The notes under the pieces were generated by a model. The model was not told the origin of the DNA. It made no database searches and worked only from the letters and a program-made list of their open reading frames with translations. From NCBI GenBank assembly GCA_038057055.1, contig JBBUDY010000017.1:1-55698 (forward strand): a stretch of DNA of 55,698 nucleotides, given 5' to 3'. How positions within the stretch are numbered: the stretch's first letter is position 1; each line of letters starts with the position of its first letter. This DNA comes from Patescibacteria group bacterium (GTDB lineage: Bacteria > Patescibacteriota > Minisyncoccia > Phycocordibacterales > Phycocordibacteraceae). Below, piece after piece: positions 9,100-54,374 of this stretch. The position numbers and the translations under genes are program-made.

Positions 9100-9112
9100 T
9101 CTTGTAAAGTAA

Positions 9113-9148: not shown

Positions 9149-9163
9149 TGCTATCATGCGTTT

Positions 9164-21248: not shown

Positions 21249-21271
21249 TTGAGCATCTAGGCCGTAGAAAG

Positions 21272-21397: not shown

Positions 21398-21483
21398 GTT
21401 GTGGCACCTTGGTAGGGACCCTAGTATAATGGTGGCAAATACAATGAAATCTTGAATTTATCAATCTCTAAACCTCGTACCTC

Positions 21484-22362: not shown

Positions 22363-22364
22363 TT

Positions 22365-22994
22365 ATGCGCAAACATGCTCCAGGCTTCGGGTTTTATTCC
22401 GTCTTTACTCTCATCACTATCGTTCCAGCAACGATTATCGCGCAAGCAATAGCTAACGCGCTTACGACCCTAGCGGGCCCGTTTGTTCAGTTTGCGGAAT
22501 GGGGACTACTACAACCGCCGACCGCTATCGCGATTATTGCCTTACTGTTTGTTTTCTACGACCGATTCTTTTGGAAAATACCACCGTTCACCTTGATTCA
22601 CGGTATTCCGAATATCAATGGACGCTACGAAGGGGAAGGCGAATCGAGTTATCAAGATGGTTTCAAGTATCCGGTCATAATCGAGGTTCATCAGACCCTT
22701 CTCAATACGCTCGTTTGTCTGTACACCGAACGTTCTGGCTCACATAGCGTTATGTCCGCCATGGGACAAAACGAGCGGAGGAACCAGTACCTATCGTACT
22801 CGTACAAGAACGCACCAAAGACCGTAACGGATGATCGTGATATGCGGCCGCATGATGGTTTTGCATGCCTAGAGATATTCGATAATGGCGACCGGCTAGA
22901 AGGATTCTACTTTAATGATCCTCGTGAGCGTGAAAGTTTTGGAAAGCTCGTACTAAAGCGAGTGAGTCGAAATACACAAGGCAAGTTTAAATAA
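22365..22994 (+). CDS. Two-TM plus beta-rich C-terminal domain protein (S-2TMbeta/Cap15-like CBASS effector candidate)
   Basis: Two N-terminal TM helices, then a ~130-aa beta-rich domain (INGRYEGEG...LEGFYFND...GKLVLKRV). The ATG lies 2 nt after the NTase stop. Confidence 0.55.
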   Translation: MRKHAPGFGFYSVFTLITIVPATIIAQAIANALTTLAGPFVQFAEWGLLQPPTAIAIIALLFVFYDRFFWKIPPFTLIHGIPNINGRYEGEGESSYQDGFKYPVIIEVHQTLLNTLVCLYTERSGSHSVMSAMGQNERRNQYLSYSYKNAPKTVTDDRDMRPHDGFACLEIFDNGDRLEGFYFNDPRERESFGKLVLKRVSRNTQGKFK

Positions 22995-24321
22995 CAGATA
23001 CACTTTTACTCTTCAGGGTAATCTTGCCGCGCAACTGTTCAAGCAACTGGCGCTTTTCCTCAATAGTTCCTTCCTCGAGTAGATACTTCGCGTATCGCTT
23101 AACATCCATCTCGAGCGCTTTTTCCTTTTCTTTTACGCCCAGTACTTGTGAGCGCAGTTTGTTGAATCGCGCAACCTCCTTATCTATGAGATGTCGTGCG
23201 CCAAGGCGGTCTATCTCTATTCCGTCGATGATTTCCGATAGTTGCTCTATGAGATTGTCTTCGCGGATATATGGATTCTTGCACCGTCGGTCTTGGGCGC
23301 GAGTGCATAAGTAATATCTGTAAATCTTTGTCGTTCCAAGCATCTTTACGAATTTCTCTTTATCCATGCAGGTGACGCCGGAACCGCACTCACCACAGGT
23401 CATCAAGCGAGTGAAGGCAAATTCACCGACTCGCTTTTTTGGATTCGTTTCCGATACGATTTTCTCTCGCACCAGTTCGAAGAGTTCTCGAGTGATAAGC
23501 GCTTCATGCTTGCCGACATACCAGTTGCCGCTTCCGCGCGGGTACTCGAAGACCCCGCAATAAAATGGATTTTTTAGGAGCTCGTAGAGAGTACCGATAC
23601 TCATATTTTTTCCGCTTCGGGTCGAGAATTTAACTTCTTCTCGTAGCCAGTGGTATATCTTCACTCCGCTCCACCGCTCTTTCCCAACCTTCTCGAATAT
23701 CATCTTCACGATAGGGGAGCGTATCGGGTCGAGTAGGTACTCGCATTTGTGGTCCGACCTCGTGTCATTGAGATATCCGACTGGTGCCCAGCCGGGAAGC
23801 ATACCCATCTCGGCTCGTGTTCGCAGACCGCGCTTCACGTTGATACTCTTATTATCGTTTTCAAGCTTCGCCTGCGAGCAAAGGATCATCAGTAGGAACT
23901 TTTCATTCGGATTGTTCGAGAATTTCTGACTATACGTCTGTATCTGCACGAGCACTCCTGCATCCATCATGTCGACGACCCGTCCGAGGTCGCCCGCGTT
24001 ACGGCTGATGCGGTCGGCCGCCCACGTCAGTATCCCGTTGAACTTCCCGGCACGCATTTCGTTGATCATCTCGTTGAATACCGGCCGCTGGCTAGCCTCT
24101 TTTGCCGAGTGGCTCTCGCGTTTGACCTCTACCACCTCAAGACCGTCCCGAGCCGCCAGCGCTGACATCTCCTTGATCTGCGAATCGATGGACAGCGCCT
24201 GCTGTTCATCTTGCTCAGTGCTCTTTCTGGCGTAGAGGCAGTACCGCACCTTTACCGCCTCCTTGGCCTCTGGTTTAAGCCCTAGAACCCTATCTGTGCC
24301 CTCAAATACCGCCTTATTCAT
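22987..24321 (-). CDS. Large serine recombinase (resolvase catalytic domain, recombinase domain, zinc ribbon and coiled coil)
   Basis: Catalytic context YCLYARKSTEQDEQ. ADRISRN motif. Cys cluster CGECGSG...CTRAQDRRC. C-terminal coiled coil. Confidence 0.85.
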   Translation of the reverse strand: MNKAVFEGTDRVLGLKPEAKEAVKVRYCLYARKSTEQDEQQALSIDSQIKEMSALAARDGLEVVEVKRESHSAKEASQRPVFNEMINEMRAGKFNGILTWAADRISRNAGDLGRVVDMMDAGVLVQIQTYSQKFSNNPNEKFLLMILCSQAKLENDNKSINVKRGLRTRAEMGMLPGWAPVGYLNDTRSDHKCEYLLDPIRSPIVKMIFEKVGKERWSGVKIYHWLREEVKFSTRSGKNMSIGTLYELLKNPFYCGVFEYPRGSGNWYVGKHEALITRELFELVREKIVSETNPKKRVGEFAFTRLMTCGECGSGVTCMDKEKFVKMLGTTKIYRYYLCTRAQDRRCKNPYIREDNLIEQLSEIIDGIEIDRLGARHLIDKEVARFNKLRSQVLGVKEKEKALEMDVKRYAKYLLEEGTIEEKRQLLEQLRGKITLKSKSVSVI

Positions 24322-24390
24322 TGCATTGTGGTTACTTGCTAATTCGCCCTACCACAATGGATGACGCAACCCGCGCTGTGAGTCCAGACC

Positions 24391-25050
24391 CTACTTTTTC
24401 TTATAATTCTTCAAGAATTCTTCGATATTGACCCCATCGCGTTTAAGTTCGCGTTCTAGTTCCTTTTTGAATTTCTCTTGTGGCTTGCCGGTGCCCCAGT
24501 CTGAGATACGCTCTTCGTCCGACATTACATGTGCTGAGCTATGTATCTCATCGTGCGTTTCGTTTTGTTCTGCGCTCTTGCTTGCTAAGAATTTCTCTTT
24601 TAGCTCTTCACTTCGAATGAATGTACCCAACATTCCCGATATACGACAAGCCCTGACGATTTGTTCACGTTGTTCATCAGGAAGTATTCCATCGTTATCA
24701 ACTAAATGATATTCGTGTCGAATGCGTTCGGCGAACCACACATGATTATTCTTAAGCCAGAATATGAGCGCGGTCAGATGGCCTTCCTGGATCTTTTTTA
24801 ATAGCCCTGATATGGCAATGTCGTTGAGATACTCGCGACCAGTGTTGATTGCCTTGTTGGCGAGACCTTTGAATTCCTTATCTTCCGAGAGCCACTTATA
24901 GTATGTTGAACGACCGACCCCGACACGTTCGCAAGCGAGTTGCACGATGCAACATTTTGTCAGATGTTCAAGAACAGCAAGTTTCTGTTCGGCGGTCTTT
25001 ACAGAAAGCGTTGCCAGACGCTTTTTCTTAGCCAACTGCTTTCCAGTCAT
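24391..25050 (-). CDS. HTH protein resembling phage small-terminase/Homeodomain-like regulators
   Basis: ACERVGVGRSTYYKWLSEDKEFKGLANKAI...ALIFWLKN follows the TerS-like HTH pattern. Function is uncertain: regulator, recombination directionality factor or TerS. Confidence 0.4.
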   Translation of the reverse strand: MTGKQLAKKKRLATLSVKTAEQKLAVLEHLTKCCIVQLACERVGVGRSTYYKWLSEDKEFKGLANKAINTGREYLNDIAISGLLKKIQEGHLTALIFWLKNNHVWFAERIRHEYHLVDNDGILPDEQREQIVRACRISGMLGTFIRSEELKEKFLASKSAEQNETHDEIHSSAHVMSDEERISDWGTGKPQEKFKKELERELKRDGVNIEEFLKNYKKK

Positions 25051-25053
25051 ACA

Positions 25054-26376
25054 CTAGGAAATTTTCTTCGCCTTTTTTCCGGTTGTCTTCTCCCAGCGGG
25101 CAATAATTACTGCGGTATATATCTCGCTCTTTTCCATCACGTAACAGCGACGACCTAGCTTATTAGCTGCAATCAGCGTTGAGCCACTACCCCCAAAGGG
25201 TTCAAGAACAAGATCACCGCGTTTCGTCAGTACCTTGAGATACGGCAGGAGAATTTCAACAGGTTTAGTTCCGAAGATGATTCCCTGGCCAGACGACTTC
25301 TCGTCTGCCGCAACAAAGTCTACGAAGTCAGTTGGGCAATACTTCTTGCCTTTCCCAGGTCCCTCCCAGTGCGGACTACCAGAGGTTGCGAAGAGCGCGG
25401 TCTCATACTGCTCTTGAAAGAGAGGATCGTCTTCTGGCTCATCGTTTAGTACGACTTCACCTGAGGTACCAACAAGCGCTACATCGTGCTTGCTAAAGAA
25501 TTTGTACTTGGCAGAAAAACCTTGTACGCGGTTGCTCAGATGCCATACAATGGTGTTGCGGTAGCGCCAATGCTTCTCGAGCGCGTTCCATATAGTTCTC
25601 AAATTCTTAGGGTTCTCATAGACGATGATTGAGAAGTCAGTTTTTTGCGCCTGAGCTACATTGGCCATCCAGAGGTCGGTAAAGTTCTCTGGTAGTGAGT
25701 CGGTGCCGAGATACTTGCGGTCTCGCTTTAAGCCAAAACCTTCAGTCGGCTTGCCGTTTTTCTTTTTGCCCCGAAGGTAATCAAGAATATAGGGCGGATC
25801 TGTGAAGCACATATCTGCCTTCTCTCCGCCCATTAGAGCGAGCATATCAGCCTCGATCATGCTGTCACCACAACGAAGACGCGAACCATCCAAGTCGAAC
25901 ATATCACCCTTCTTAATCGTTACCTCGCTGATGTTTAATTTTTCCAATTCACGCTTAAGGTCAAAATGCTCGGGTGTAGTTTCAACCTCGAATATTTCAT
26001 CAAGCTCAATTGTGTCGAAACCTACATCTTTCAGGAAATCCTCGCCGAAATCCTTAAGTATTGCAAGGTCAAATTCTCCGAGATTCTTGTTCAAACGAAT
26101 GTTTAATTCTTTTTCGCGTTCTATCTCCGGTATATTCACATACACTACAGGCATTTCTTTGAGCTCAAGATCTTTGGCGACTTTCAGACGGAAGTGTCCA
26201 CCTACAACTACATTCTCGCGACCTTCGGCTTTATTGCACACGATAGGGTCCACCATACCGAAACGCTGCAAGCTCTCCTTCAATGCAGCAATTTGTGATT
26301 CGTTCCACTTACGGGGATTATATTCCGACGGTTTCAATTCACTGATTGGCACATACACGATATTTAAGTTTTCCAT
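25054..26376 (-). CDS. ParB-like nuclease domain fused to an N6A/N4C DNA methyltransferase
   Basis: N-terminal ParB box (LKPSEYNPRKW). Motif IV TDPPY. C-terminal AdoMet motif LEPFGGSGSTLIAA (beta-class order). Confidence 0.85.
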   Translation of the reverse strand: MENLNIVYVPISELKPSEYNPRKWNESQIAALKESLQRFGMVDPIVCNKAEGRENVVVGGHFRLKVAKDLELKEMPVVYVNIPEIEREKELNIRLNKNLGEFDLAILKDFGEDFLKDVGFDTIELDEIFEVETTPEHFDLKRELEKLNISEVTIKKGDMFDLDGSRLRCGDSMIEADMLALMGGEKADMCFTDPPYILDYLRGKKKNGKPTEGFGLKRDRKYLGTDSLPENFTDLWMANVAQAQKTDFSIIVYENPKNLRTIWNALEKHWRYRNTIVWHLSNRVQGFSAKYKFFSKHDVALVGTSGEVVLNDEPEDDPLFQEQYETALFATSGSPHWEGPGKGKKYCPTDFVDFVAADEKSSGQGIIFGTKPVEILLPYLKVLTKRGDLVLEPFGGSGSTLIAANKLGRRCYVMEKSEIYTAVIIARWEKTTGKKAKKIS

Positions 26377-26720
26377 AACAAAAAACGAATAGCTTATAAG
26401 GCATATTCGGTAGCTCGAACAGGAGGTTGCTTATTCAGTTAAATTAACTATACACCCCTGCTGTGGTGTGCAAATTATTTTGAGAGTATTTTCCGGCTCT
26501 TGAAGAGCCGCACTGCTTTTTCTTCAATTGGACACTTCAATCAACGTTTATAACAGAAAGTATATGTCAATACTGTCAATGAAAGCCGCTTAAAATAGTT
26601 ATCCACAAGGCCCTTCGCAAACGTCGAAATCTAAGCTAGGGTGCAAGGCGATAGCTGAAAGTGCTATCATTCTTTTACAACCGAATATGCGCCTAAACCC
26701 TTCGGGGCATGGCGTAAAAA

Positions 26721-26765
26721 ACCGTCCAAGGTAAAAAGCTCCTCGTCAGGAGCACCTTGGACGGT
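26721..26765 (+). promoter_or_regulatory. Compound stem-loop in the leader of the nuclease/R-M operon
   Basis: ACCGTCCAAGGT ... ACCTTGGACGGT forms a 12-bp perfect stem. It encloses an inner hairpin GCTCCT-CGTC-AGGAGC. Further CCGTCCAAGG/CCGTCCAAC boxes lie at 26840-26849 and 26859-26867. Confidence 0.6.
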
Positions 26766-26851
26766 CCCTCCGGGAAACTGGGGGTGGGTGGCGCAAGTCA
26801 TCGCCTGGCGGGGAGCTTTTTGTATCCCGCTAGTTAAATCCGTCCAAGGAA

Positions 26852-27844
26852 ATGAAAACCGTCCAACCCGACCAAGCGGGTCATCTTGGATTTTTAGATC
26901 AATACGCAACCGACAGCGAAATATTTTCGCTTCGTTCTGGTAAGCAAATTTCTATACCAAAGTATTTCCTTGACCTTAAGAAATGGGAAGGAGTACCGAT
27001 TGCCAACACATATAACAATAAAGCGGTCATCGATTGGAACGGTGAGCCGGTATTCGCCGAGTTAGCCGTTCTGCGACTATTCCAGTCGAACGGATGGAAA
27101 GGCGTGTGGGTCGATTCGTATCGGAGAAAATTCAGAGTCGGTCTGCCAGACGTGGTCGATCCGATAGAATTACCGGAAGCACAAACACAGCTATTAAATA
27201 CTCTTCGAGAAAAGACTGGACGTTTCGGAGGATGTTGGGACTTACTGCTGTGGAAGGGCGACGACACACTTTTCGTCGAATTAAAGCGACGAGGGAAAGA
27301 TAGAATACAGATCACCCAAACTGACTGGCTTTCAGTGGCTCTCGAGTCGGGTCTGGCTAAAGATAACTTTGCGATCGTCGAATGGGATTTTTCTTTGCCG
27401 AACCGTCTTATATTTGAGTATCCAGAGGACAGAAAATTCTTTGTCGATCTACTATCTGGCGGAGACGAAGAAAAATTCGACAAAGAATTTTCCGATTACT
27501 TCGATTTCAACCACCAGGCTATCAAGCGTTGGGTGTTTAATAAAACGAGCAAGAAAGTACTAGCAGAGCTTATTGAGAAATATGGTGGTAAGTGTCAGCT
27601 TCGGATTCATCCCGAGTGCAGTACGACCGGTGTGTGGCATCCGGATCATATAATCCCGCTCGCATCCGCAGAATTACATAGGAAACTGAGACATCTCACA
27701 AACAATTCGGATGGCTCTAAGCCCGAGTCGGTGAGCTACGGATCAAACCACCCGAAAAATCTCACATTAGCCTGCGAGAAGTGCAATTTGCGCAAAAAAC
27801 ACCGCATAATCTGGCCAGTACCTAAAGATGAAGAAAGTTGCTAA
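26852..27844 (+). CDS. VRR-NUC (PD-(D/E)xK) nuclease domain fused to a C-terminal HNH endonuclease
   Basis: GCWDLLLW...TLFVELKRRGKDRIQITQTDW matches the VRR-NUC pattern. HPDHIIP...NLTLACEKCNLRKKH matches HNH. Confidence 0.7.
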   Translation: MKTVQPDQAGHLGFLDQYATDSEIFSLRSGKQISIPKYFLDLKKWEGVPIANTYNNKAVIDWNGEPVFAELAVLRLFQSNGWKGVWVDSYRRKFRVGLPDVVDPIELPEAQTQLLNTLREKTGRFGGCWDLLLWKGDDTLFVELKRRGKDRIQITQTDWLSVALESGLAKDNFAIVEWDFSLPNRLIFEYPEDRKFFVDLLSGGDEEKFDKEFSDYFDFNHQAIKRWVFNKTSKKVLAELIEKYGGKCQLRIHPECSTTGVWHPDHIIPLASAELHRKLRHLTNNSDGSKPESVSYGSNHPKNLTLACEKCNLRKKHRIIWPVPKDEESC

Positions 27845-30086
27845 AATCAAGGTAATGCAATTGTCAGACAACGAAAAACGTGATGCCATAAAATACCTTG
27901 AAGCTGGGAAGCCACTCCCAGAGAAATACCGCTTTCTGCTGTTCGGTGAGACCCAAGAAGTCGAGCTTCTTTGGAATGGGAAAACAAACGAAGTGACAAA
28001 TGTCGTCCTGCCTTTCCAAGTCATTGAACAAATTGATGAACCGAGGAGTAATGAGAAATTTGGCACTACTGATTCTCTTTTTGATACAACGGGCAGACAA
28101 ATAACTGGCTGGACGAATAAGCTAATCTGGGGAGATAACAAGCTTATCCTCTCTTCTTTAAAGAATGGTCCTTTACGGAAGGAGATAGAAGCACACGGCG
28201 GCTTGAAGTTGATCTATATAGACCCGCCTTTTGATGTGGGGGCTGATTTTTCAATGGATATAAAAATTGGCGATGGAGAAGATGAAGAAAGCTTTACTAA
28301 AAAGCCGTCGGTCATAGAAGAAATCGCGTATCGTGATACTTGGGGCAAGGGGGCTGATAGCTTTATCGCGATGATCTATGAACGCCTGAAGCTCATGCAT
28401 GACCTGCTTGCAGAAGACGGAAGCATTTATGTGCATTGTGATTGGAGAGTCTCGAGTTATATGAGGCTTGTGTTGAATGAAATATTTGGATTGGATAATT
28501 TTATTGCAGAAATAATATGGAAAAGATCCGACAGCCACAACGACTCTAAGACCATAGGTGCCGTTGACGACAGAATTCTTTTTTATAGCAAGGGGGATAA
28601 CTTCATATTCAACAAGCAGTACGTACCAATGACAAGCGAAGTAATTGATGCTTGGTACAAAAAAGATGAGAATGGAAAGTTGTATAAGTTGGAAAATACT
28701 CTAGCCCCCGGTGGTAGAGGACCGATTTATGATTGGCATGGAGTAACTCGTGCTTGGCGTTATACGAAAGAAAACATGAAGAAACTTGAAGACGAGGGCA
28801 AGCTTTACCATACAAAAACAGGCTATCCTAAAAAGATTGTTTACCTCGAAGAGAGTAAGGGCGTACCTATAAATACCATTTGGACTGACTTGAGATTGGT
28901 AAATCGAACTTCTCATGAACGTTTAGACTACCCTACACAAAAGCCTGAAAATCTACTTGAGAGAATAATTACAATGTCGACTGGTGAAGGCGACCTGATT
29001 GCAGATTTTTTCTGCGGTTCCGGGACTACTCTTTCTGTTGCGGAGAAGCTGAACAGAAAATGGATCGGTTCTGATCTCGGAAAGTTTGGAATACACACAG
29101 CGAGGAAGCGACTTATAGGAGTGCAGAGAGAATTAAAGAAAGCAGGAAAAGATTTCCGTGCTTTTGAGATTTGGAATGTTGGTAGATATGAAAGAGAAAA
29201 TTTCCTCGCAGTGAATGATGATTTACGCGCAGAAGAAAAGGCCAAGCAAGCAGTGAGAAAAGAGAAGGAGTTCGTTAAGCTCATCATTTCGGCGTATAAG
29301 GCCGAACCAGTAGATTCCTTCGTAAACATGGTTGGTAAAAAAAGAGATCGCTTGGTGGTTGTGGGACCTATCAATGCACCAGTCTCATCTAAATTGGTGC
29401 AGGACATTGTTGCCGAATGTAAGAAGAAAAATATTACTAAAATCGATGTGCTCGGATTCGACTATGAGATGGGTCTTGATTTCGGAGAGTATAAAAGTCA
29501 AGGAATTGATATTGCGTTTATGATTATTCCGAGGGAAGTTTTTGATAAAAAGGCGGTTGAGAAGGGACAGGTGAAGTTTTACGATGTTGCATTCATCGAA
29601 GCGAAGCCGATAATTAAAGGAAAGGGTAAAGGCAAGGAGCTCTCGATCGAACTTTCTGATTTCTCTGTATTCTATAATCAAGACGATTCAGGCGAAGTAG
29701 CAGAAACTCTTCGCCCCGGTGGAGCTAAGGTAGTCGTGGAAAACGGACAGGTCGTAAAAATATCGAAAGATAAAACAACGGAGCTGATTTCAAAAGAGGT
29801 TTTGACGAAAAAGTGGAGCGACTGGATTGATTATTGGGCGGTGGATTTTGATTTTGCGAGTAGAAAAGAAATCATCAAGGTCATAGAGAATGATGAAGAA
29901 AAAGAAGTTTGGACTGGCGACTATATTTTTGACAACGAATGGCAAAGCTTCCGCACAAAGAAGAACAGGAACCTTGAACTTATTTCCGTGGCTAAGGAGG
30001 TGCCGAAAGGGACTTATAAAGTCGCGGTAAAGGTCGTGGATATTTTCGGTAATGACACAACGAAGGTGTTGGAAGTAAAAATATAG
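27828..30086 (+). CDS. mod: Type III restriction-modification methyltransferase (Mod)
   Basis: Motif IV IDPPFDV is followed far downstream by motif I DFFCGSGTT (beta-class order). About 750 aa. Lies directly upstream of Res. Confidence 0.85.
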   Translation: MKKVAKIKVMQLSDNEKRDAIKYLEAGKPLPEKYRFLLFGETQEVELLWNGKTNEVTNVVLPFQVIEQIDEPRSNEKFGTTDSLFDTTGRQITGWTNKLIWGDNKLILSSLKNGPLRKEIEAHGGLKLIYIDPPFDVGADFSMDIKIGDGEDEESFTKKPSVIEEIAYRDTWGKGADSFIAMIYERLKLMHDLLAEDGSIYVHCDWRVSSYMRLVLNEIFGLDNFIAEIIWKRSDSHNDSKTIGAVDDRILFYSKGDNFIFNKQYVPMTSEVIDAWYKKDENGKLYKLENTLAPGGRGPIYDWHGVTRAWRYTKENMKKLEDEGKLYHTKTGYPKKIVYLEESKGVPINTIWTDLRLVNRTSHERLDYPTQKPENLLERIITMSTGEGDLIADFFCGSGTTLSVAEKLNRKWIGSDLGKFGIHTARKRLIGVQRELKKAGKDFRAFEIWNVGRYERENFLAVNDDLRAEEKAKQAVRKEKEFVKLIISAYKAEPVDSFVNMVGKKRDRLVVVGPINAPVSSKLVQDIVAECKKKNITKIDVLGFDYEMGLDFGEYKSQGIDIAFMIIPREVFDKKAVEKGQVKFYDVAFIEAKPIIKGKGKGKELSIELSDFSVFYNQDDSGEVAETLRPGGAKVVVENGQVVKISKDKTTELISKEVLTKKWSDWIDYWAVDFDFASRKEIIKVIENDEEKEVWTGDYIFDNEWQSFRTKKNRNLELISVAKEVPKGTYKVAVKVVDIFGNDTTKVLEVKI

Positions 30087-30088
30087 CT

Positions 30089-32779
30089 ATGGCCCTCCCT
30101 AAAGATTTTCCAAGAGACCCATATGCGGTACTAGATCCGGGCATTCGCTGGTTTCCAGCTGACGAGGATTTAAGAGAGAAGGGCTTTGATAAACTCATCC
30201 CTCCACTTGTCGCTGATCTCCGCAAGAAGATAAAGGAGTGGAGGGATAAAGACTATGAAGGAGCTAGTGAGACCTCGAAGGCGCTCTTGAACTGGTGGTT
30301 CAAGGAAGAACATATTTTGTATGACCAACACGGTGCGTCATTTCATTTCAGGTATTATTTCGCTCAAAGAGAAGCGTTAGAGACCGTCATCTGGCTCTAT
30401 GAGGTTGCCAAGGTGAAGGATAAATACGACCTCATTCGCTATAACTCGACTGGTGTACTAAGTCCACAAATGTTTACAGAAGAGTGGCTACGCTTCGTGA
30501 TTAAGATGGCCACAGGCGCAGGTAAGACTAAGGTTATGAGCCTTGTTGTGGCATGGGCGTATTTCCATAAGAAATATGAGAAAGATTCCAAACTCGCAAA
30601 GAACTTTCTTTTGATAACGCCGAATGTCATCGTCTTCGAGAGAATCAAGAACGATTTCGCTGGTCTGAAGATATTCTTCAGCGACCCTGTTCTGCCAGAA
30701 AACGGATACCAGGGTCAAAATTGGCAGGATGATTTTCAAGTCACTTTGCACCTACAAGATGATTTGAGGAATGTTTCAGATACTGGAAATATATTCCTCA
30801 CGAATATACACAGAGTTTTTGAGAACGATGTAAAAGAAGTGGGTCCGGAAGACGAAGACACCTCGGTTTATTTCTTAGGAAATAAACCCGTTACAAAGAC
30901 GAATGATTCTACTGTTGATCTCGGAATGATTGTCAGAGATATAGACGAGCTTATTGTTCTGAACGACGAGGCGCACCATCTGCATGACGACAAATCCGCG
31001 TGGGTAAAATCCATTCAGGATATAGATAATCGGTTGAAGCAGAAGGGATCCGGTCTAGCTCTACAGTTGGATGTTACAGCAACACCGAAGAAAAATGATG
31101 GATCTATTTTTGTTCAGACGATTTCCGACTATCCGCTCGTTGAGGCTATCCATCAACGAGTAGTGAAAAATCCGGTCGTTCCAGATGCAGCGAGTAGAGG
31201 AAAACTCAAAGAGAATCAGAGCGCATTATTTAGTGAGAAATACAGAGACTACATAAATCTTGGCATCGAAGAGTGGCGGAAGACATACGAAACGCTAAAG
31301 CCAATGGGCAAGAAGTCGATTCTTTTTATCATGACGGATGATACGAAGAATTGCGACGAAGTGGCTGAATATATTGAAACGAGCTTTGCGGATTTGAAGG
31401 GTGCTGTTCTAACTATTCACACCAATAAGAGTGGCGAGATTTCGGAGAATGTATTGGGGAAAAATAAAGATGAGTTAACCATACTCAGACAACAAGCGAA
31501 CGATATAGATAGCTGGGAGAGCCCATTCAAGGTGATCGTATCCGTGATGATGCTGAAAGAAGGGTGGGATGTGAAGAATGTCACAACGATTGTTGGACTC
31601 CGACCGTATGCGGCCGACTCGAAGATCCTACCTGAACAGACACTCGGTCGCGGTCTTCGCCGAATGTTCTTCGGCAGAGATGATGTCGAGGAATATGTGA
31701 GTGTTGTTGGTACTCCCGCATTTATGGATTTCGTCGAGTCAATCAACGGCGAGGGAGTGATTCTAGAGAAGAAGGCTATGGGTACCGGCACAAAACCGAT
31801 TACGCCTATGGTCATCGAGGTCGACAAGGATAATCCAAAGAAAGATATAGAGAAGCTAGACATTGAGATCCCAGTGATGTCTCCGAGGATACAACGAGAG
31901 TATAAAAATCTTGCAGAGCTGAATGTCTCTAATTTTGGAAATGAGAAAGTAAAAGTGAAGACATTCTCCGAGGAAGAGAAAAGAGAAATCGTGTTTAAGG
32001 ATGTGGTTGATGAGAAGACACACCATACGACCGTGCTAACGGGGGATATCGAGCCGGATTACCAAAGTGTTATCGGCTTTTTCACGCAAGCTGTGATGAG
32101 AGATCTAAGGTTATTTGGTTGCTACGATATTTTGTTCGGTAAGGTAAAGGAATTCGTTCAAGGCCATATGTTTGATCGGCCGGTGAATCTGTCAGACCTG
32201 AATACTTTGAGGAATCTATCTGAAATAGAATATATACGCCTCATTAAGAGCTCATTCAAAAAAGCGATCAATGAACTAACTGTTCAGGACAGCGGAGATA
32301 CGGAAATCAAAAACTACATAAAAATCAGCGAGGCACGGCCATTCGTTGTGAATGACAAGTCTTATCTAATCCCAAAAAAATCAGTCTTCAATAAAATTGT
32401 TGGGGATAGCAATTTTGAGCTTGCCTTTGCTGATTTCCTCGAGAATTGCGATGACGTGATATCTTTTGCAAAGAACTTTGAGAATAAAGAAGCCACTGCG
32501 CTCAGGATCGAGTATAAAAACTCTGAAGGATCTATCGCTAATTATTATCCAGATTTTTTCGTCAAAAAAGACGACAAAACTGTGTACATAATTGAAACGA
32601 AGGGTCGTGAGGAGGAAGACGATAAGTTGAAGTTCCAAAGACTGCAAAAATGGTGCGAAGACGTCAATGCTCGCCAAAGCAGGACAATGTATAAGGCACT
32701 CTACATAAAACAGGAGGAATGGGAAAAAGATAAGCTAAAGAATTTTGATGAGGTCGTTAGAGTATTTAATTCTAAATAA
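30089..32779 (+). CDS. res: Type III restriction enzyme Res subunit (SF2 helicase plus C-terminal PD-(D/E)xK nuclease)
   Basis: Motif I MATGAGKTKV, motif II NDEAHH, motif VI QTLGRGLR. C-terminal YYPDFFV...YIIETKGRE. Confidence 0.88.
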   Translation: MALPKDFPRDPYAVLDPGIRWFPADEDLREKGFDKLIPPLVADLRKKIKEWRDKDYEGASETSKALLNWWFKEEHILYDQHGASFHFRYYFAQREALETVIWLYEVAKVKDKYDLIRYNSTGVLSPQMFTEEWLRFVIKMATGAGKTKVMSLVVAWAYFHKKYEKDSKLAKNFLLITPNVIVFERIKNDFAGLKIFFSDPVLPENGYQGQNWQDDFQVTLHLQDDLRNVSDTGNIFLTNIHRVFENDVKEVGPEDEDTSVYFLGNKPVTKTNDSTVDLGMIVRDIDELIVLNDEAHHLHDDKSAWVKSIQDIDNRLKQKGSGLALQLDVTATPKKNDGSIFVQTISDYPLVEAIHQRVVKNPVVPDAASRGKLKENQSALFSEKYRDYINLGIEEWRKTYETLKPMGKKSILFIMTDDTKNCDEVAEYIETSFADLKGAVLTIHTNKSGEISENVLGKNKDELTILRQQANDIDSWESPFKVIVSVMMLKEGWDVKNVTTIVGLRPYAADSKILPEQTLGRGLRRMFFGRDDVEEYVSVVGTPAFMDFVESINGEGVILEKKAMGTGTKPITPMVIEVDKDNPKKDIEKLDIEIPVMSPRIQREYKNLAELNVSNFGNEKVKVKTFSEEEKREIVFKDVVDEKTHHTTVLTGDIEPDYQSVIGFFTQAVMRDLRLFGCYDILFGKVKEFVQGHMFDRPVNLSDLNTLRNLSEIEYIRLIKSSFKKAINELTVQDSGDTEIKNYIKISEARPFVVNDKSYLIPKKSVFNKIVGDSNFELAFADFLENCDDVISFAKNFENKEATALRIEYKNSEGSIANYYPDFFVKKDDKTVYIIETKGREEEDDKLKFQRLQKWCEDVNARQSRTMYKALYIKQEEWEKDKLKNFDEVVRVFNSK

Positions 32780-35700
32780 TGTGGCTACCTTATTACCGAA
32801 AGACGACAAGGGTTACTCGGTAAACTTAGATGTAAATAACCCCAGAAGGGACGAGATTTGTGACTTTCTAGATTCCTTCAATGCACTTGAGAAGTTCTGC
32901 GAAGTCAGGCCTTCAATTTTATTGAAAGGTGGCTGGTATGCAATGCAGAGGGAGAATAGAATCCAAAATCTGGATTGGATGGCACAATCAGCCCACTCAT
33001 TTAGGGAGATACATTACGGCATTCTAGACAGTAAGACTTTGATTTTTAAGACGAAGCGGTTTCTCATTTTGAATGCAATAAAGTTCTTCAACTACAAAAC
33101 TAATAACATTCCAAAAACTAGGAAGGATAAAATCTCAGACTCGCTAAAGACTTATGTTGCAGATGAAGCCAAACGGCAAGAAATATCGACAGCAATAAAT
33201 AAAGTACATATTGCCTTTACAAAAATAGCTCACCATTTTAAGGAGCGAGACAGTCTCAAGGACACCTTGAAGATATTTGTATTTCTTAAAATTACCCAGA
33301 GTAATATAGCCGCGATTGAACCGGAGAGCTTCGAGAGTCTCGTAGATATATTTGAGAATCTGATTCTTGATATAAAGCCAAGAGGTCTGACCTCCCATAA
33401 AATAATCGACGACATACTCCTGAACAAGAATTTCGACGAGAAGATAATCAGATCGATTTGTCTTTCGGGTGGCAATCCAGACACTAAGCGATACTTTTTC
33501 TCTAAGGCGGATGAGATTTGGCTGAAATGGCTCTGGGAGAAAGGGTTACTGGACGACTTAAAGAAACCCGCTTTAGATACATCTAAGTATTCGTATCGTC
33601 TACCAGAGCTTGAATATTTAACTCGTATGGTAGGGAAAGAGCCCAAAATGGTTACCGAGATAATGAACTCAGTTACTATCTCAAAGGAAACTTTTAATCC
33701 AGAAGTGGTCGATAGATTTACTTGGATCATCAGTTTACTTCCTGTCGAGCAAACAAAGATTTTGTTTCCAAAGATTTTGCGTGAAAGCTGGGTGCAACTC
33801 ATGTCCCCATTTCATAGATCAGGATACGAATATATAAAAATTGTTGAAAAGTTAAAAGAGTCTGGAGACCCTGATGCATTAATCGGTCTGGCAAAAATTA
33901 TTCTGACACCACGCTCCAAAGAGGAAGTTCAGGCAATAAACGGTTATATATCATCAGATAAATTATTCTATCTTAACGACATAACAGAGACCGGCCTCTT
34001 TGATCTGCTTTTGGATACCAGAAATACAGAGAAAGAAAAGACACTTGCGTTAGCACTCGACGTGCTAGGTAAGGTAGTTACCAACGGCAAGGACAGAGAA
34101 GTTGTTTTTAAGGAATCGGAGCCTTTTTATTTGCTTGATGTAGATATTTTCACGATTGAAGTAAATAACGAAAGAAAATCATATACGAAAGATGATATTG
34201 AGAATCTCATTGCTCTGGCAAAGAAACTTATTGATGAGCTGTTCTCTTCAGCTTGTGATAACCCAGCTGAGGTTAGAAGATTGTACGATACCAACATTTC
34301 TGGCCTTCCTGACAGCAGGACTTTGTACAAGCTCAGACTGTACACGGCCACACGATGTCCATCTGTCTTCAGGCAAGAAATTAAAACCCTGCTGTTTAGA
34401 GTTTTCGAGGTTGGAGAACGGTACTTTGAAATTGAAGGTGGGGCGGAATATCATAGTGCATTAATTGCCGGTTTTAGTGCACTTGATGCAGATACAGCTC
34501 AGCGAGAGTATGTCGCGAAAGTATTTGAGTATTTTGGAGCAAAACTTGAAAATGAGGATAAGGAGAAATGGAGGCGAGAGGCCGGACTTGAAATCGTTAC
34601 TTATATTAAAACTTATTTAACGAAGGAAGAAATTGAACAATCAGAAAAGCTGTTTGGAAAACTTCCAGAGGGTAAGAAGTTATCCCCACACCCAGAAGCA
34701 ACTATGGGTGAGGCAGGAATCGTGGCCCACCGATCTCCAATAAATGTCAGTGAATTCTCCGTTGAACAAATTGTTGAACACCTTAAAACTGACTGGTCCC
34801 CTACAGTACTTAAAGAACAGTACGGTGGGGATGATTTCCTTAGTCCTCGTGGAACTGAAGGACTCGGCGATGCGTTGAAAGACGATGTCAAAAAGCGACT
34901 AGATTCGTATCTAGAGAAAATAAACGATTTCTTCGACAGAGATAACATTGCGCCCCACTATGTTTATTCGGTGATTCGTGGAATCGAGGAAATGTTAAGA
35001 AACAAAGAGAAGATTTCTTTAGAGCAGGCCGGTAAGCTCGTAGATTTCTTTGAATTCGTTAAAAACGAGGGCTTGAAGACTCCTTTCAAGAAGGCTGACG
35101 ATAAAGAGTGGCTAGCAGACTGGATTGAAGTTCATAAAGTTATTGTAGACGCATTGCTGTATCTTACGGAAAACAAGGATTTAAAGGTGTCACTACATTC
35201 GGCATATCGAGACAAAATCCGCGACATAATTTCGTATCTACTAACTATTGAGAGTAGCCCGTCTAAAGAGCACGAAAAACCAGAATATGGCGAACCGTAC
35301 CATGTGGCAATCAATTCAGTACGTGGCCGTGCGTACGAAGCATTTGTTATCTTTACTGAGAATGACGGAAAGGCTCTTGCTGAAGATGTAAAAAGTATTT
35401 ACAGACAGTCTCTTAACGATGAATCAATCGCGGTACACTTTGTCATCGGGCGTTATCTAGCTACTTTCTATTTTCGAGATAAAGAATTTATAAAAGAGAC
35501 ACTCCCTGAAATCTTCCCGAAGGATGATCCCGTAAAAAAGGACATGTATTTAGCCTCGTGGGAGGGATACCTATCAAACACCTTATATGACAAGCTCTTT
35601 GCAGAGTTCAAGAACTATTACGAACATGCCATCATGCTGGACCCATCCGTATATACAGAGAGGAAATATACTAGGAGTTTAGATGAATTACTCGCGACAC

Positions 35701-36329
35701 ACCTTGCCCTCGCTTATGCTAATCTAGACCTTAAAATAGGTGACCCATTGTTTGATCTATTCTGGAAGACTCCCAACGCAACGAGACATTATGAGTTTGC
35801 ATCTTTTCTTGGACGAAGTTGTTTAACTCGAGATAGTGCTGGTGATGAATGGTTAAAGGAAAATAAGGTAAGCAAAGAAAAGCTTATTGAATTTTGGAAT
35901 TGGATGCTGGCCACAGATATCCCGATTGATGCGAAGGCTTTTGCAGGGTTTGGTTTCTGGGTGAATCCAGATAAGGAAGTCATCGATGAAAAAATCATTG
36001 TTAAAAATTTAGTTGCCACACTCAAGAAGTCCAATGGAGAAATTGATTGGGACTACGGTTTAATGCAACGTCTTAAAGTATTTGCAGGAATTGATCCCGT
36101 AAATACATTAGAAATCATAAAGAATTATCTCCTTCTTGATGGCGAACTTAATCCTCACAGGAGGTCTCCTTTGTTTAGTCTTGAGAATGAAATCAAAGAA
36201 GCTCTCGTCATCATCTATAAAGATCCAACACTGAAGAGTGCTGTCAAAGATTTAGTCGATATCCTGATTGAGAAAGGCAGTAGCTCATTCTGGGGGTTAA
36301 AGGACGTTCTTGGGGGGATAAGTAAATGA
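32745..36329 (+). CDS. Orphan 1194-aa protein, mostly predicted alpha-helical, with no recognisable catalytic or NTPase motif
   Basis: Uninterrupted ORF. The ATG at 32745 overlaps the res end by 35 nt. An alternative GTG at 32781 lies 1 nt after the res stop. No GxxxxGK[ST] motif found by eye. Confidence 0.6.
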   Translation: MMRSLEYLILNNVATLLPKDDKGYSVNLDVNNPRRDEICDFLDSFNALEKFCEVRPSILLKGGWYAMQRENRIQNLDWMAQSAHSFREIHYGILDSKTLIFKTKRFLILNAIKFFNYKTNNIPKTRKDKISDSLKTYVADEAKRQEISTAINKVHIAFTKIAHHFKERDSLKDTLKIFVFLKITQSNIAAIEPESFESLVDIFENLILDIKPRGLTSHKIIDDILLNKNFDEKIIRSICLSGGNPDTKRYFFSKADEIWLKWLWEKGLLDDLKKPALDTSKYSYRLPELEYLTRMVGKEPKMVTEIMNSVTISKETFNPEVVDRFTWIISLLPVEQTKILFPKILRESWVQLMSPFHRSGYEYIKIVEKLKESGDPDALIGLAKIILTPRSKEEVQAINGYISSDKLFYLNDITETGLFDLLLDTRNTEKEKTLALALDVLGKVVTNGKDREVVFKESEPFYLLDVDIFTIEVNNERKSYTKDDIENLIALAKKLIDELFSSACDNPAEVRRLYDTNISGLPDSRTLYKLRLYTATRCPSVFRQEIKTLLFRVFEVGERYFEIEGGAEYHSALIAGFSALDADTAQREYVAKVFEYFGAKLENEDKEKWRREAGLEIVTYIKTYLTKEEIEQSEKLFGKLPEGKKLSPHPEATMGEAGIVAHRSPINVSEFSVEQIVEHLKTDWSPTVLKEQYGGDDFLSPRGTEGLGDALKDDVKKRLDSYLEKINDFFDRDNIAPHYVYSVIRGIEEMLRNKEKISLEQAGKLVDFFEFVKNEGLKTPFKKADDKEWLADWIEVHKVIVDALLYLTENKDLKVSLHSAYRDKIRDIISYLLTIESSPSKEHEKPEYGEPYHVAINSVRGRAYEAFVIFTENDGKALAEDVKSIYRQSLNDESIAVHFVIGRYLATFYFRDKEFIKETLPEIFPKDDPVKKDMYLASWEGYLSNTLYDKLFAEFKNYYEHAIMLDPSVYTERKYTRSLDELLATHLALAYANLDLKIGDPLFDLFWKTPNATRHYEFASFLGRSCLTRDSAGDEWLKENKVSKEKLIEFWNWMLATDIPIDAKAFAGFGFWVNPDKEVIDEKIIVKNLVATLKKSNGEIDWDYGLMQRLKVFAGIDPVNTLEIIKNYLLLDGELNPHRRSPLFSLENEIKEALVIIYKDPTLKSAVKDLVDILIEKGSSSFWGLKDVLGGISK

Positions 36330-49426: not shown

Positions 49427-50638
49427 CTAGTGCTCGGCTTCGTGTTCGATGGCGAGGAGACGCTCGTATTTTTCGAGGCGCTCGCGCTGACCGAGGCCGC
49501 CGGCTTTGATACCGTGTGCGCCAATGCCGTACGCGAAGTCGGCAATGAAGGTGTCGTTGGTCTCGCCAGAGCGGTGTGAGGCGATAGCCTGCCAGCCGGC
49601 GGTGTACGTCTCTTGTACCGCCTGGATTGCCTCGCGCACCGTGCCGATCTGATTTGGCTTGACGAGCACAGCGTTTATTTCTTTGTGAGCAGCAGCTTCC
49701 CGAATGCGTGCAGGGTTGGTCACCGTGAGATCGTCACCGACAATCAGTATCTTGTCGCCAAGTGCTGCAGTAAGTTTGGTGAAATAATCAGCTGACTCTT
49801 CATCAAATGGATCTTCAATGCTGTGAATAGGGAACCGTTCGGCAAACTCTCGATAAAGCGCCAAGAGTTCATCGGCTGAATAAGATTTGCCGAGTAGATG
49901 ATACGTACTATCTTTGAAAAACTCGCTTGCCGCAGCATCAATCGCGATTGAAGTACCGGAGAGTTCTTTCACGAGATCAGTCAAAATCTCAAACGGCTGT
50001 TCAAGCGTATCAAAGGTTGGTGCGTAGCCGCCCTCGTCACCCATCGGGACGTTTCCGAGTCGTTCGCCGAGTTTTGCGAATGCTTCTTGTGCAATCGGGA
50101 ATGCCTCACTTGTTTTTCCCTCGACCACGAGTATGTATTCTTGAAAAGGGAGTTTGCTTGTCCCGAGTGAAGTCGAGGGGAAGTCAACGTGGACGCCGCC
50201 GTTCATCACGTTTACATACAATCGCGGTGCCACGGGAGTGGTGCCAGCGCCTGCCTGCGCAGGCAGGCGCTCGGCGATAGCACTCCAGAGCGGCACACTT
50301 TCCCCAAGCGCAAAGAGCCGTTGTGCGGCGATAGAGACCGAGAGGAGAGCGTTCGCGCCCAGGCGCGACTTGTCCGGTGTGCCGTCGAGCTCGATGAGAA
50401 ATGTATCAAGCGCATCTGCCGAATTAAAATCATGTTGCGTAAGTGTGCTCGCTATCTCACCGTTTACATTTTCTACCGCTATACTTGCATCAAGCTCGAG
50501 GGCTTCATGAGTTCCCGTACTTTTCCCCGATGGCGCAGATGCCGTTGTAGAACGTGTTCCAGACGCGAGAGTGACTTCTATCGTCAATCGTCCGCGAGTG
50601 TCTGGAATAGTTCGTGCAACAGCCTTGTCTATGTTCAT
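49427..50638 (-). CDS. eno: Enolase
   Basis: RTIPDTRGRLTIEVTL N-terminus, SHRSGETNDTFIADFA and LVKPNQIGT motifs. Start set at MNIDKAV, 1 nt after the ppsA stop. Confidence 0.93.
   Translation of the reverse strand: MNIDKAVARTIPDTRGRLTIEVTLASGTRSTTASAPSGKSTGTHEALELDASIAVENVNGEIASTLTQHDFNSADALDTFLIELDGTPDKSRLGANALLSVSIAAQRLFALGESVPLWSAIAERLPAQAGAGTTPVAPRLYVNVMNGGVHVDFPSTSLGTSKLPFQEYILVVEGKTSEAFPIAQEAFAKLGERLGNVPMGDEGGYAPTFDTLEQPFEILTDLVKELSGTSIAIDAAASEFFKDSTYHLLGKSYSADELLALYREFAERFPIHSIEDPFDEESADYFTKLTAALGDKILIVGDDLTVTNPARIREAAAHKEINAVLVKPNQIGTVREAIQAVQETYTAGWQAIASHRSGETNDTFIADFAYGIGAHGIKAGGLGQRERLEKYERLLAIEHEAEH
50247..50270. repeat. Perfect 24-nt palindrome GCGCCTGCCTGC|GCAGGCAGGCGC, in-frame inside eno
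   Basis: Read directly in the sequence. It encodes part of the LPAQAGAG segment, which is absent from the canonical enolase LPVPM..N.INGG region. Confidence 0.9.
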
Positions 50639-53066: not shown

Positions 53067-54374
53067 TTATTTTTTAAGCGCGATAATAAGATCAGACACA
53101 TTAGAATCAGTATACCCGGTCACGAGTGCATCACCGACTGTGGTAAAGAAATCAAACGAGCGATGTTCTGCAAGATACTCCTCAATTGAAAGCTGTTGTG
53201 CCGTTGCATGTGCACGGGTCGTTGTATCGGCAATTGCGCCCGCATGGTCAGTGTTGTCGTGACCGTCTGATGCAAAAGGGAGTAAGAGTTCTCCGTCACG
53301 GATATCTGCAAGCGCCGCGAGCGCCATTTCTTGATTCCTTCCCCCTGCCTGCGCAGGCAGGCCTGTGCCAGCATTTTGAGAAAGTGTGACCGTACTCTCT
53401 CCGGCAGAGAGTAGGACAGTATCCGCGCCCATGGCACGCAACTTCTCTACGACGGCACGGCCAATCTCGCGCGCCTCTCCGGAGAAGTGATCGTTCACGA
53501 TTTCAACCGCATAACCGCGTTTCTCTGCGTCTTCTCTCATCGCGTCGAGCGCACTGTGACTGGTGAGGAACAGTACGTTTGCAACGCGCTCGAAATATTT
53601 CTGCTCCTTTGGCGTCTCTATGAATTCAATATTCTTTGAGGCAGCGATGTTGTATTTCTCCAGAACCGCTTTTGCATCAGCAATAGTCGAAGAGTCGAGT
53701 ACGGTCGGTCCAGAAGCGATAGAGCGGACATCGTTACCCGGCACATCAGACACAATGAGTGAGATAACTTCGGCAGGGTATGCAGCCTTTGCGAGTGCGC
53801 CACCGCGCGCCTGCGAAAGGTGTTTGCGCACGGTATTCATCTCTTGTATCGTGGCACCCTTTGTCGTGAGCTCATTCCAGAGCGCGCTTTCGTCGAGGAA
53901 GGTCATGGGAGCAGTAGGGAGGCACAGCAAGGTCGAGCCGCCGCCGGAGATAAGCATGATGACAAGGTCATTCTCGGTTCGATCGGCTAGGAATTCAACA
54001 ATACTCTTAGCCGCTTCTACGTTTGCCTCGCTCGGGAGTGGGTGCGTACCAACAAGCATTTCTATTTTCTTGAGAGAGTGCTCTGTTGAAGGAAATACAT
54101 CGAGTGCCATACCGCCAGTCAGTTTCTCACCAAGGAGTTTCTCAATTTCTTTGGCGGTGGAAAAGGCACATTTGCCGACACCAACGAAGAAGATTTTTCG
54201 CCCCGCGAGGTTGTAAGTTACGTTGTCGACACGCAGCTCCTCGGGACCGAGGACCAGTGTGCGCTTCAAGGCCGCGCCGATATTAATTGCCGCATAGCCC
54301 GCTTCTGCGATCGAGAGAGCATCAGTACGCAGATCATTTACAGCAAGTGCATCAAAATTTTGTATGAGGCCCAT
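53067..54374 (-). CDS. Glycerate 2-kinase / hydroxypyruvate reductase-like (MOFRL family)
   Basis: LISGGGSTLL and SAGESTVTL ... GGRNQEMALA motifs match the MOFRL pattern. Confidence 0.8.
   Translation of the reverse strand: MGLIQNFDALAVNDLRTDALSIAEAGYAAINIGAALKRTLVLGPEELRVDNVTYNLAGRKIFFVGVGKCAFSTAKEIEKLLGEKLTGGMALDVFPSTEHSLKKIEMLVGTHPLPSEANVEAAKSIVEFLADRTENDLVIMLISGGGSTLLCLPTAPMTFLDESALWNELTTKGATIQEMNTVRKHLSQARGGALAKAAYPAEVISLIVSDVPGNDVRSIASGPTVLDSSTIADAKAVLEKYNIAASKNIEFIETPKEQKYFERVANVLFLTSHSALDAMREDAEKRGYAVEIVNDHFSGEAREIGRAVVEKLRAMGADTVLLSAGESTVTLSQNAGTGLPAQAGGRNQEMALAALADIRDGELLLPFASDGHDNTDHAGAIADTTTRAHATAQQLSIEEYLAEHRSFDFFTTVGDALVTGYTDSNVSDLIIALKK
53344..53361. repeat. Perfect 18-nt palindrome CCTGCCTGC|GCAGGCAGG, in-frame inside the glycerate kinase gene
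   Basis: Encodes LPAQAG, inserted immediately before the conserved GGRNQE motif. Confidence 0.9.

Follow-up and report, generated by a model that had tools for sequence, protein, structure and literature searches.

The enolase gene (eno) of a Patescibacteria group bacterium carries within its open reading frame (ORF) a perfect, GC-rich palindrome of 18 nt, CCTGCCTGCGCAGGCAGG, which we call P. The gene lies on contig JBBUDY010000017.1, of which 55,698 nt were analyzed as a whole (the window), and the locus raises the question how such a short sequence came to lie in a conserved enzyme and what spreads it. We consider it probable that P belongs, as the smallest form and without cargo, to a family of insertions whose autonomous-looking form is a cassette encoding a GIY-YIG nuclease.

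P and its host genes in the window

P has three matches in the window, where dinucleotide-preserving shuffles give an expectation of 0.00. They lie in eno, in gatA and in a glycerate-kinase-like gene (Table 1); these host genes and their common core had been named correctly in a preliminary description of this DNA. In gatA the core (16918-16935) has one mismatch and the unit consists of P with an extra right half. All six 9-mer half-sites of the window are located within the three copies, and relaxed searches of the 55.7-kb window yielded no further half-site and no intergenic copy, as had been stated before. One and the same of the three possible frames reads all copies. As RNA, the hairpins at the eno and gatA copies reach -28.8 kcal/mol (z = -4.5) and -36.9 kcal/mol (z = -3.8), respectively, and the glycerate-kinase copy folds weakly (z = -0.5).

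The inserted units measure 18 nt in eno, 27 nt in gatA and 18 nt in the glycerate kinase gene. The lengths given earlier (24, 33 and 18 nt) were right in being multiples of three, but at eno and gatA the additional GCG/CGC comes from the host flank, which extends the palindrome by chance, and the values of 24 and 33 nt are therefore too long. The 24-nt palindrome described at 50247-50270, with the halves GCGCCTGCCTGC and GCAGGCAGGCGC, is present, but the perfect palindrome is longer and spans 50246-50271. In the alignment of orthologues enolase gains LPAQAG and not LPAQAGAG as had been assumed, the following AG being host sequence.

The 120 closest enolase orthologues (67-100% identity, Kaiserbacteria/Paceibacterota-type) were compared. 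The site is empty in 115 of them (...AIAxR/AGTT..., with nothing between R and A), and P is therefore a clean 18-nt insertion that made no target duplication. The empty-site DNA of the syntenic relative L148 reads CAACG^TGCGGGC, and filled sites have the same sequence plus exactly 18 nt, again without duplication. Because empty and filled DNA differ by exactly 18 nt, the true insert in eno is 18 nt and GCG/CGC belongs to the host. Orthologues with and without the element, which the preliminary description had proposed to look for, thus both exist, and its proposal that P is inserted in conserved enzymes also holds for the other two hosts. The glycerate kinase regains the canonical spacing before GGRNQE when LPAQAG is removed. 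GatA minus nine residues is collinear with the solved GatA of Pseudomonas aeruginosa, and this comparison suggests that the nine residues are an insertion.

Enolase was hit repeatedly. P is found at the same codon boundary in lineages that are 77% and 68% identical to the enolase of the window, and a second site, GGVHA/LPAQAG/D, is filled in two further lineages. At the shared site P is 18/18 identical between lineages while neighbouring synonymous positions differ. The closest named enolase relatives of the window are Kaiserbacteria. P was recovered from five contigs, which come from three sources (NCBI, Logan, ENA). No presence/absence polymorphism was detected in the population to which the window belongs, as every cluster member carries P.

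Some smaller observations concern the same sites. The otherwise identical population enolases P0198, P0001 and P0201 have their only amino acid differences in the left arm of P (50259-50270 region), where AERLPAQAG, AERRPAQAG and AEPQPAQAG occur; these variants may mark a mutational hot spot, or the hairpin may have caused errors in sequencing. A second in-frame insert of 24 nt in eno (50156-50179, minus strand) encodes PSTSLGTS in VHVDF/PSTSLGTS/KLPFQEY. It is missing from most enolase orthologues, identical in P0013 (72% identity) and adjoins the site of P in P0002 and P0054; in the collected loci it showed no enrichment as a repeat family. In L148 the glycerate-kinase orthologue (68% identical) has a different GC-rich insert (...GPSPRRSGLRPREG..., 7240-7290) at the exact position of P. 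This insert is about 10 residues longer and contains a 7-8-bp inverted repeat, and the loop before GGRNQE evidently either receives inserts repeatedly or tolerates them.

A dispersed family and a cassette with the same ends

The exact 18-mer was searched for in one genome per species, which yielded loci of 8 kb (L numbers). P occurs in at least 119 genome stretches, where about 9 are expected by calculation for a 596-Gb collection of uniform composition. The numbers in this and the next paragraph refer to the matches listed. Named Patescibacteria lineages of many classes account for 70 of 119 loci; the others include Bacteroidota, Terriglobia, a WOR-3 metagenome-assembled genome and two cultured isolates. 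The flanks are unrelated to each other, and P typically stands out as a GC-rich patch from AT-rich surroundings. A purine occupies position -1 in 195 of 248 flanks, with the mirror pyrimidine at position +1. No direct repeat, i.e., no target-site duplication, was found in the flanks, nor at the empty and filled enolase sites.

Among 96 copies in AT-rich loci, 55 lie in long ORFs and 41 outside. When ORFs of at least 200 aa were considered, the LPAQAG frame was used 51 times, PACAGR 12 times and CLRRQ 6 times (binomial p = 6.5e-12). This bias towards a single frame indicates that the insert is translated. The residue preceding coding copies is most often D (18 of 65), G (17) or N (7). The density of P is low and shows no association with gene ends, and loci selected for one copy contain five extra copies that are exact and five with one mismatch. 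The family count and the in-frame bias, with 51 of 69 coding copies in the LPAQAG frame, bear out the behaviour like Rickettsia palindromic elements (RPEs) that had been suspected earlier, namely a dispersed repeat family inserted in frame.

Chance or artefact as the source of P was rejected on the shuffles, the independent assemblies and isolates, the recurrence at orthologous sites and the frame bias. A phage origin was likewise discarded: the 18-mer has 25 matches in viral contigs, mostly in GC-rich DNA and without a frame pattern, and the cassette described below is essentially absent from viral contigs, with one distant relative. Length variants of P differ by CCTG units or in the centre (L075 921, L087 393, L032 3415, L017 7435, L102 486). 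Examples are 22-mers of the (CCTG)3 type and a 20-mer with CCGG centre, composed of CCTGCCTGCC and GGCAGGCAGG, and they suggest slippage or variable junction formation.

The cassette was first recognized in locus L070 (the WOR-3 genome), where one hsdR ORF of 1179 codons contains P, a hairpin mini of 39 nt and a domain of the GIY-YIG type, all of them in frame. The hairpin reads CCTGCCTGCCGCGCCGC-ttcacttt-GCGGCGCAGGCAGG (LPAPQSEAARQAG). The domain (nt 6790-7085) comprises about 95 residues and lacks a start codon; it is enclosed by inverted repeats of about 25 nt, which start with the two halves of P. This hsdR ORF (3958-7494) contains four insertions of the family in all, i.e., P, a 21-mer, the 39-mer and the full cassette, the last after a reversed half-site. 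Searches with the L070 domain returned a GIY-YIG subfamily that is nearly always bounded by LPAPRP... and ...RQAG and whose members sit within MGMT, HsdR, MsrB, TrmD, HsdS/HsdM, DUF899 and DNA methylase proteins.

A metagenome scan with the cassette alignment gave 434 relatives, of which 80 loci (~370 kb) were kept. In 76 of the 80 the cassette is exactly 282 nt long, and in 76 of the 80 at least 20 open codons follow on both sides in the cassette's own frame. It lacks a start codon and is read through as a domain of about 94 residues (LPAPRPG...RQAG) inside the host protein. The imperfect inverted repeats at its ends are about 20 bp long, with CCTGCCTGC and GCAGGCAGG as the outer 9 nt; these 9-mers are at least 90% conserved at both ends in 73 non-redundant cassettes. 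The end consensus is gaC/CTGCCTGC GC CGCG... on the left and ...CGCG GCAGGCAGG/y on the right, within flanks of the form gaC/.../(c/t)g. When the segment between the two GC dinucleotides of CCTGCCTGC[GC CGCG...CGCG]GCAGGCAGG is dropped, exactly P results. The cassette repeats reach about 8-11 nt past the P halves.

The 80 loci represent about 45 distinct insertion sites, typically ...D/G... or ...D/E... (GA^CG). One of them, the HsdS motif LVPQDPND/EPASVLLE, is used in many hosts of 35-64% GC; the collected DNA contained only three empty HsdS sites (QDPND/EPAS) in which minis could be looked for at a known cassette site. Among 1.84 billion cluster representatives, 199 matched at E <= 1e-30 and 5254 at E <= 1e-10. 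Of the best 150 of these 199, 110 lie in proteins of at least 250 aa, and in 129 the match is preceded by more than 30 residues. Among 93 of them HsdS is the host in 65 cases; the remaining hosts are trigger factor, ArgRS, QueC, TatD, TrmD, pseudouridine synthase, SET and NUDIX proteins and others. In Pfam the nuclease matches PF01541, and the solved structures closest to it are those of the UPF0213 proteins BH0048 and EF2693 (1zg2, 1ywl; E = 3e-15), with SLX1 next. Contig L212 is from Kaiserbacteria, since its HisS is 84-85% identical to named Kaiserbacteria proteins, and the cassette is therefore present in the lineage of the closest named enolase relatives of the window. In this contig a SET-domain gene contains a cassette (3001-3310), and a mini of 27 nt is nested in the right repeat of this cassette.

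Between cassette and P stand hairpin minis, of which the 80 cassette loci contain about 45 (20-43 nt). The commonest are 33 and 30 nt long, have the form CCTGCCTGCGCCGCG-loop-CGCGGCAGGCAGG and are read as LPAP..RQAG; in L200 four 33-mers lie in tandem (2-133). Minis of 30-39 nt keep the inner bases of the cassette repeats. Exact P was found in none of the 80 loci, which carry minis of 30-42 nt, and the Patescibacteria loci contain P and 20-mers almost exclusively. Cassette, minis and P share their ends, the lack of a target-site duplication and the preference for a purine^pyrimidine flank (often GA^CG, where the preceding codon is one for Asp, Gly or Asn). P and the cassette also have a common reading frame, in which their ends encode LPA... 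and ...QAG. P, the cassette and most minis have lengths divisible by three and thus leave the host ORF open, so that a loop of 6 residues (P) or a domain of about 94 residues (cassette) is added to the protein.

Proposed origin and spread of P

P itself encodes no cargo, and no GIY-YIG ORF is present in the window; P can therefore at most be a non-autonomous derivative. The mode by which we infer it to be mobilized is the following. P would have arisen when a cassette lost all sequence between its two outer 9-mers and would then have multiplied in Patescibacteria as a non-autonomous element, with a nuclease of the family acting in trans. This nuclease, a relative of structure-specific GIY-YIG enzymes, would recognize the hairpin or cruciform of the end or would cut targets in such a way that the element is copied in, and selection would retain those copies that are read as a harmless LPAQAG in tolerant loops. 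Judged from sequence, the kinship with SLX1/UPF0213 suggests that the nuclease recognizes the ends as a hairpin or cruciform, whereas recurrent sites and the lineages of same-site cassettes suggest a component similar to homing. The 18/18 identity of P across diverged lineages may reflect ongoing recognition by the nuclease, and the tandem and nested minis, together with the split of minis and P between loci, favour minis that propagate on their own. Slightly short of an even chance is given to the wider proposal that cassette and miniatures are an undescribed class of prokaryotic mobile element. In such a class the autonomous form would persist because host proteins, both restriction-modification subunits and housekeeping enzymes, are translated with it as an internal domain, and hairpin minis of 18-42 bp would have seeded peptide loops (LPAQAG etc.) across Patescibacteria and beyond.

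Several results weigh against this reading. P retains just 9 nt per end, which is very short for recognition by a protein, and nuclease activity, binding of P and transposition are predictions. No cassette or GIY-YIG gene is present in the 55.7-kb window, and the P-bearing genome DNA (~0.93 Mb, matches listed) holds one cassette only, that of the WOR-3 genome. A GIY-YIG gene lies within the 8-kb P locus in 9 of the 119 listed cases, a rate that by our own estimate is about background and not obviously enriched. Cassettes are 75% identical at the same site and 64% at different sites, and this likeness also fits plain vertical inheritance or homing. Among the extra copies in the loci listed none has 2-3 mismatches; a simple neutral model in which P is a dead miniature explains neither these missing copies nor the 18/18 identity. 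Physical linkage of P to GIY-YIG genes was rejected as an argument, the cassette type being found in L070 alone; proximity gives no support, and the link between P and cassette rests on their shared ends.

P could also be immobile, a scar left by a lost GIY-YIG cassette through an excision footprint or an internal deletion. We regard this as unlikely but viable. Cut ends or GC microhomologies would rejoin to CCTGCCTGC-GC-AGGCAGG; P equals exactly the two outer 9-mers, the removal from GC to GC reproduces it, and flank preference and reading frame match those of cassettes. GIY-YIG enzymes such as I-TevI and UvrC typically leave 2-nt 3' overhangs, and a self-complementary GC overhang would religate to P. 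A single cassette in P-bearing DNA that amounts to roughly one genome agrees with a cut-and-paste element of low copy number, and the recurrence of P at enolase sites could be homing of the cassette followed by its loss. However, no cassette-bearing enolase is present among the 120 orthologues, and 41 of the 96 listed P copies in AT-rich loci are non-coding, where a cassette without start codon could not express its nuclease. The cassette loci hold their ~45 minis in ~370 kb and no exact P, so cassette loss does not always yield P. Self-insertion of minis is the simpler explanation for their tandem arrays and for the one nested in a cassette repeat. Because cassette-rich DNA lacks P and minis are tandem and nested, a mobile miniature is preferred to a scar.

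A further alternative makes P an independent palindrome, similar to repetitive extragenic palindromic (REP) sequences or miniature inverted-repeat transposable elements (MITEs), which is spread by another enzyme and into whose centre the cassette inserts as into a landing pad. Candidates for this enzyme are a REP-associated tyrosine transposase (RAYT) or IS200-type transposase and the free-standing GIY-YIG or HNH endonucleases common in these genomes. We think this improbable. The cassette does have the structure of two P halves with DNA between them, and P far outnumbers it in Patescibacteria. Five tRNA-Gln 5' fragments are split by P near free-standing GIY-YIG or HNH ORFs, and other short GC-rich palindromes (TCCGCCAGCTGGCGGA) cluster with P intergenically, which suggests a general process that spreads palindromes. 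But the cassette repeats extend ~8-11 nt beyond the P halves, and the 30-39-nt minis keep inner repeat bases, as nested deletions of a cassette would and insertions into P would not. Cassette-rich loci are without P, so cassettes do not need P sites, and the cleanly empty HsdS sites (QDPND/EPAS) already point the same way. P is without the GTAG-type 5' signature that marks REPs. The partial annotation of the window (~20 ORFs against Pfam) revealed neither a RAYT nor an IS200-like gene. A partner enzyme of this type had been suggested in the preliminary description; the protein associated with P is instead the GIY-YIG nuclease of the cassette, whose inverted-repeat ends are the P halves.

That the hairpin is removed or skipped after transcription, by RNA excision or ribosomal bypass, so that the host proteins lack LPAQAG, is very unlikely. 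The RNA hairpins at eno and gatA are very stable, and P is conserved at the nucleotide level while its flanks diverge. Precedents are reported in the inverted-repeat-triggered excision of transposons from animal mRNAs and in a mobile bypass element of phage T4 (PMC12779559; bioRxiv 10.1101/2022.08.31.505936). The glycerate-kinase copy, in contrast, folds weakly, and 74% of the listed coding copies are in one frame with lengths in multiples of three, which is expected only if they are translated. The cassette without start codon is in frame with its host on both sides in 76 of 80 loci, which indicates read-through. Hardly credible, finally, is P as an ancestral or functional host sequence (binding site, uptake signal, terminator) or as an assembly artefact: the population enolase differences, which all fall inside P (ERL, ERR, EPQ), could be sequencing trouble at a GC hairpin, but P is missing from 115 of 120 orthologues, has a low density and no gene-end association, occurs in five contigs of three sources and in cultured isolates, and shows a frame bias that cannot stem from an artefact.

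The preferred reading of P as a mobile miniature recalls several known systems, of which RPEs and MITEs come nearest in behaviour, although P belongs to neither. RPEs, reportedly described in Science in 2000 by Ogata et al., are selfish palindromic repeats in protein genes that keep the frame and add a peptide, and that occur in non-coding and RNA-gene contexts as well. They are about 100-150 bp long and confined to Rickettsia, and we know of no autonomous partner. P resembles them in behaviour only, as it inserts in frame into conserved enzymes and adds a peptide, but it has 18 bp, occurs in many Patescibacteria classes and other phyla, and its ends match a nuclease cassette. Length alone excludes P from the RPEs.

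Like MITEs and REPINs, P is short, non-autonomous, multicopy and hairpin-forming, and shares inverted-repeat ends with a longer protein-coding element. Unlike MITEs it makes no target-site duplication, is far shorter than any of them, and is mostly intragenic and in frame, and its partner protein is a GIY-YIG nuclease instead of a DDE or HUH transposase. REP/REPIN sequences are extragenic and have a conserved GTAG-type tetranucleotide at the 5' end, and the RAYT gene is flanked by REPs. P contains no GTAG, and 55 of the 96 listed copies in AT-rich loci are intragenic. Short GC-rich palindromes in AT-rich genomes are also known as yeast mitochondrial GC clusters, Neurospora PstI palindromes and Magnusiomyces byp elements; these lie near tRNA genes and sometimes in ORFs, and they nest and cluster. 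The core of the Neurospora PstI palindrome, CCCTGCAGTACTGCAGGG, has 18 nt. P shares with them size, GC richness, the AT-rich setting and the location near tRNA genes and in ORFs. The organellar elements differ from it in their unrelated sequences and in the lack of a nuclease cassette with the same ends, and byps are bypassed, not translated.

The cassette is similar to homing endonucleases (I-TevI, Seg) in its small GIY-YIG nuclease, in its recurrence at identical motif positions (e.g., HsdS QDPND/EPAS) and in the lineages formed by same-site copies. It differs in having no intron, intein or start codon, in being read through on both sides and bounded by inverted repeats, in its ~45 distinct sites in 80 loci, and in the nuclease itself, which belongs to the UPF0213/SLX1 and not to the I-TevI/UvrC branch (PMC1564403). 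The same paper, published in 2006, describes a single recent domain insertion (MCA0838 of Methylococcus capsulatus), and the term 'inverted repeats' appears nowhere in its accessible text; going by its description, this is probably the same cassette. Beyond that single-case note, a search of the literature outside subscription journals gave no description of the P sequence, the peptide motifs or the concept, in line with the first impression that the repeat family is not a described one.

The finding joins known kinds of elements, i.e., in-frame selfish palindromes and nuclease-borne mobile elements. If it is true, a selfish DNA unit of very small size repeatedly gives rise to indels in conserved proteins of the Candidate Phyla Radiation, and such indels affect alignments, phylogenies and structure predictions for these organisms. 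The cassette would then be a third way for a nuclease gene to reside inside a host gene, beside introns and inteins, namely as an inserted domain that is read through, and it would be the first bacterial element to pair a GIY-YIG (SLX1-like) nuclease with terminal inverted repeats. The function of the ubiquitous UPF0213/YhbQ/YazA-type nucleases, long unknown, would also become directly testable. The exact 18-mer is a simple marker with which such insertions can be found and dated.

Possible modules at tRNA-Gln, other palindromes and a probable integrated element

The positions of P, its host genes and the further features are compiled in Table 1.

Table 1. Positions of P, its host genes and further features; window coordinates unless a locus is given.
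Feature	Position	Strand	Remarks
P element	50250-50267	-	perfect 18-nt palindrome, exact; in eno, read as LPAQAG
P variant, 27 nt	16918-16944	+	1.5 units (CCTGCCTGC GCATGCAGG GCAGGCAGG); in gatA, read as LPAHAGQAG
P element	53344-53361	-	exact 18-mer; in MOFRL/DUF4147 glycerate-kinase-type gene, LPAQAG directly before conserved GGRNQE motif
eno	49427-50638	-	enolase, host gene, 403 aa from ATG
gatA	16865-18322	+	host gene, 485 aa
glycerate-kinase-like gene	53067-54374	-	host gene; DUF4147 + MOFRL in syntenic relative L148
tRNA-Gln fragments split by P	L027 1724-1763; L037 3529-3572; L038 6774-6815; L042 361-395; L109 712-752
TCCGCCAGCTGGCGGA family outside the window	L066 2079; L082 1715 and 7273; L096 7450; L104 4962; L106 5738; L111 5470; L022 6320
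pair of tRNA-3'-end-like sequences	21232-21292		inverted
large serine recombinase	22987-24321	-	precedes the low-GC island
HNH-like ORF	26852-27844		weak; in the region 21232-36329
mod	27828-30086		type III restriction-modification pair, in the island
res	30089-32779		type III restriction-modification pair, in the island
ORF of 1194 aa			in the region 21232-36329; without Pfam match

Five Patescibacteria genomes have a leftover 5' fragment of tRNA-Gln that P interrupts between nt 9 and 10 (GGATCG^TCTAATGG). Next to the fragment lies a free-standing GIY-YIG ORF in L027 and L038, a decayed copy with stop codons in L109, an HNH ORF in L037 and nothing in L042; an intact tRNA-Gln then follows. The arrangement resembles a homing-endonuclease module that invades tRNA-Gln and takes P along. 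Insertion of P in functional tRNA genes (GGATCG[P]TCTAATGGTAGGA, similar to a D-arm) was considered and rejected, since ARAGORN finds the intact tRNA-Gln nearby and P splits the leftover.

A second family of short GC-rich palindromes, TCCGCCAGCTGGCGGA, is present in the window at 9112-9149, where the motif with centre GT lies inside perfect arms of 18 nt between two ORFs. Its copies are often 40-200 nt away from P in intergenic clusters of GC palindromes, and L106 has a third motif, CTCTCCTTGCCAAGGAGAG. Both motifs may be miniatures of other cassette families.

The window further contains a perfect palindrome of 38 nt (19120-19157), with the halves AACACAGAAGCCGCGACAT and ATGTCGCGGCTTCTGTGTT and CAT/ATG at the centre, at the 5' end of a histidine-phosphatase ORF. 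It starts 88 nt past a tRNA-Met (18961-19032) and as RNA would hide the likely start codon. The region 21232-36329 contains an island of low GC content (39-44% compared with ~50%) with the type III restriction-modification pair and is probably an integrated element.

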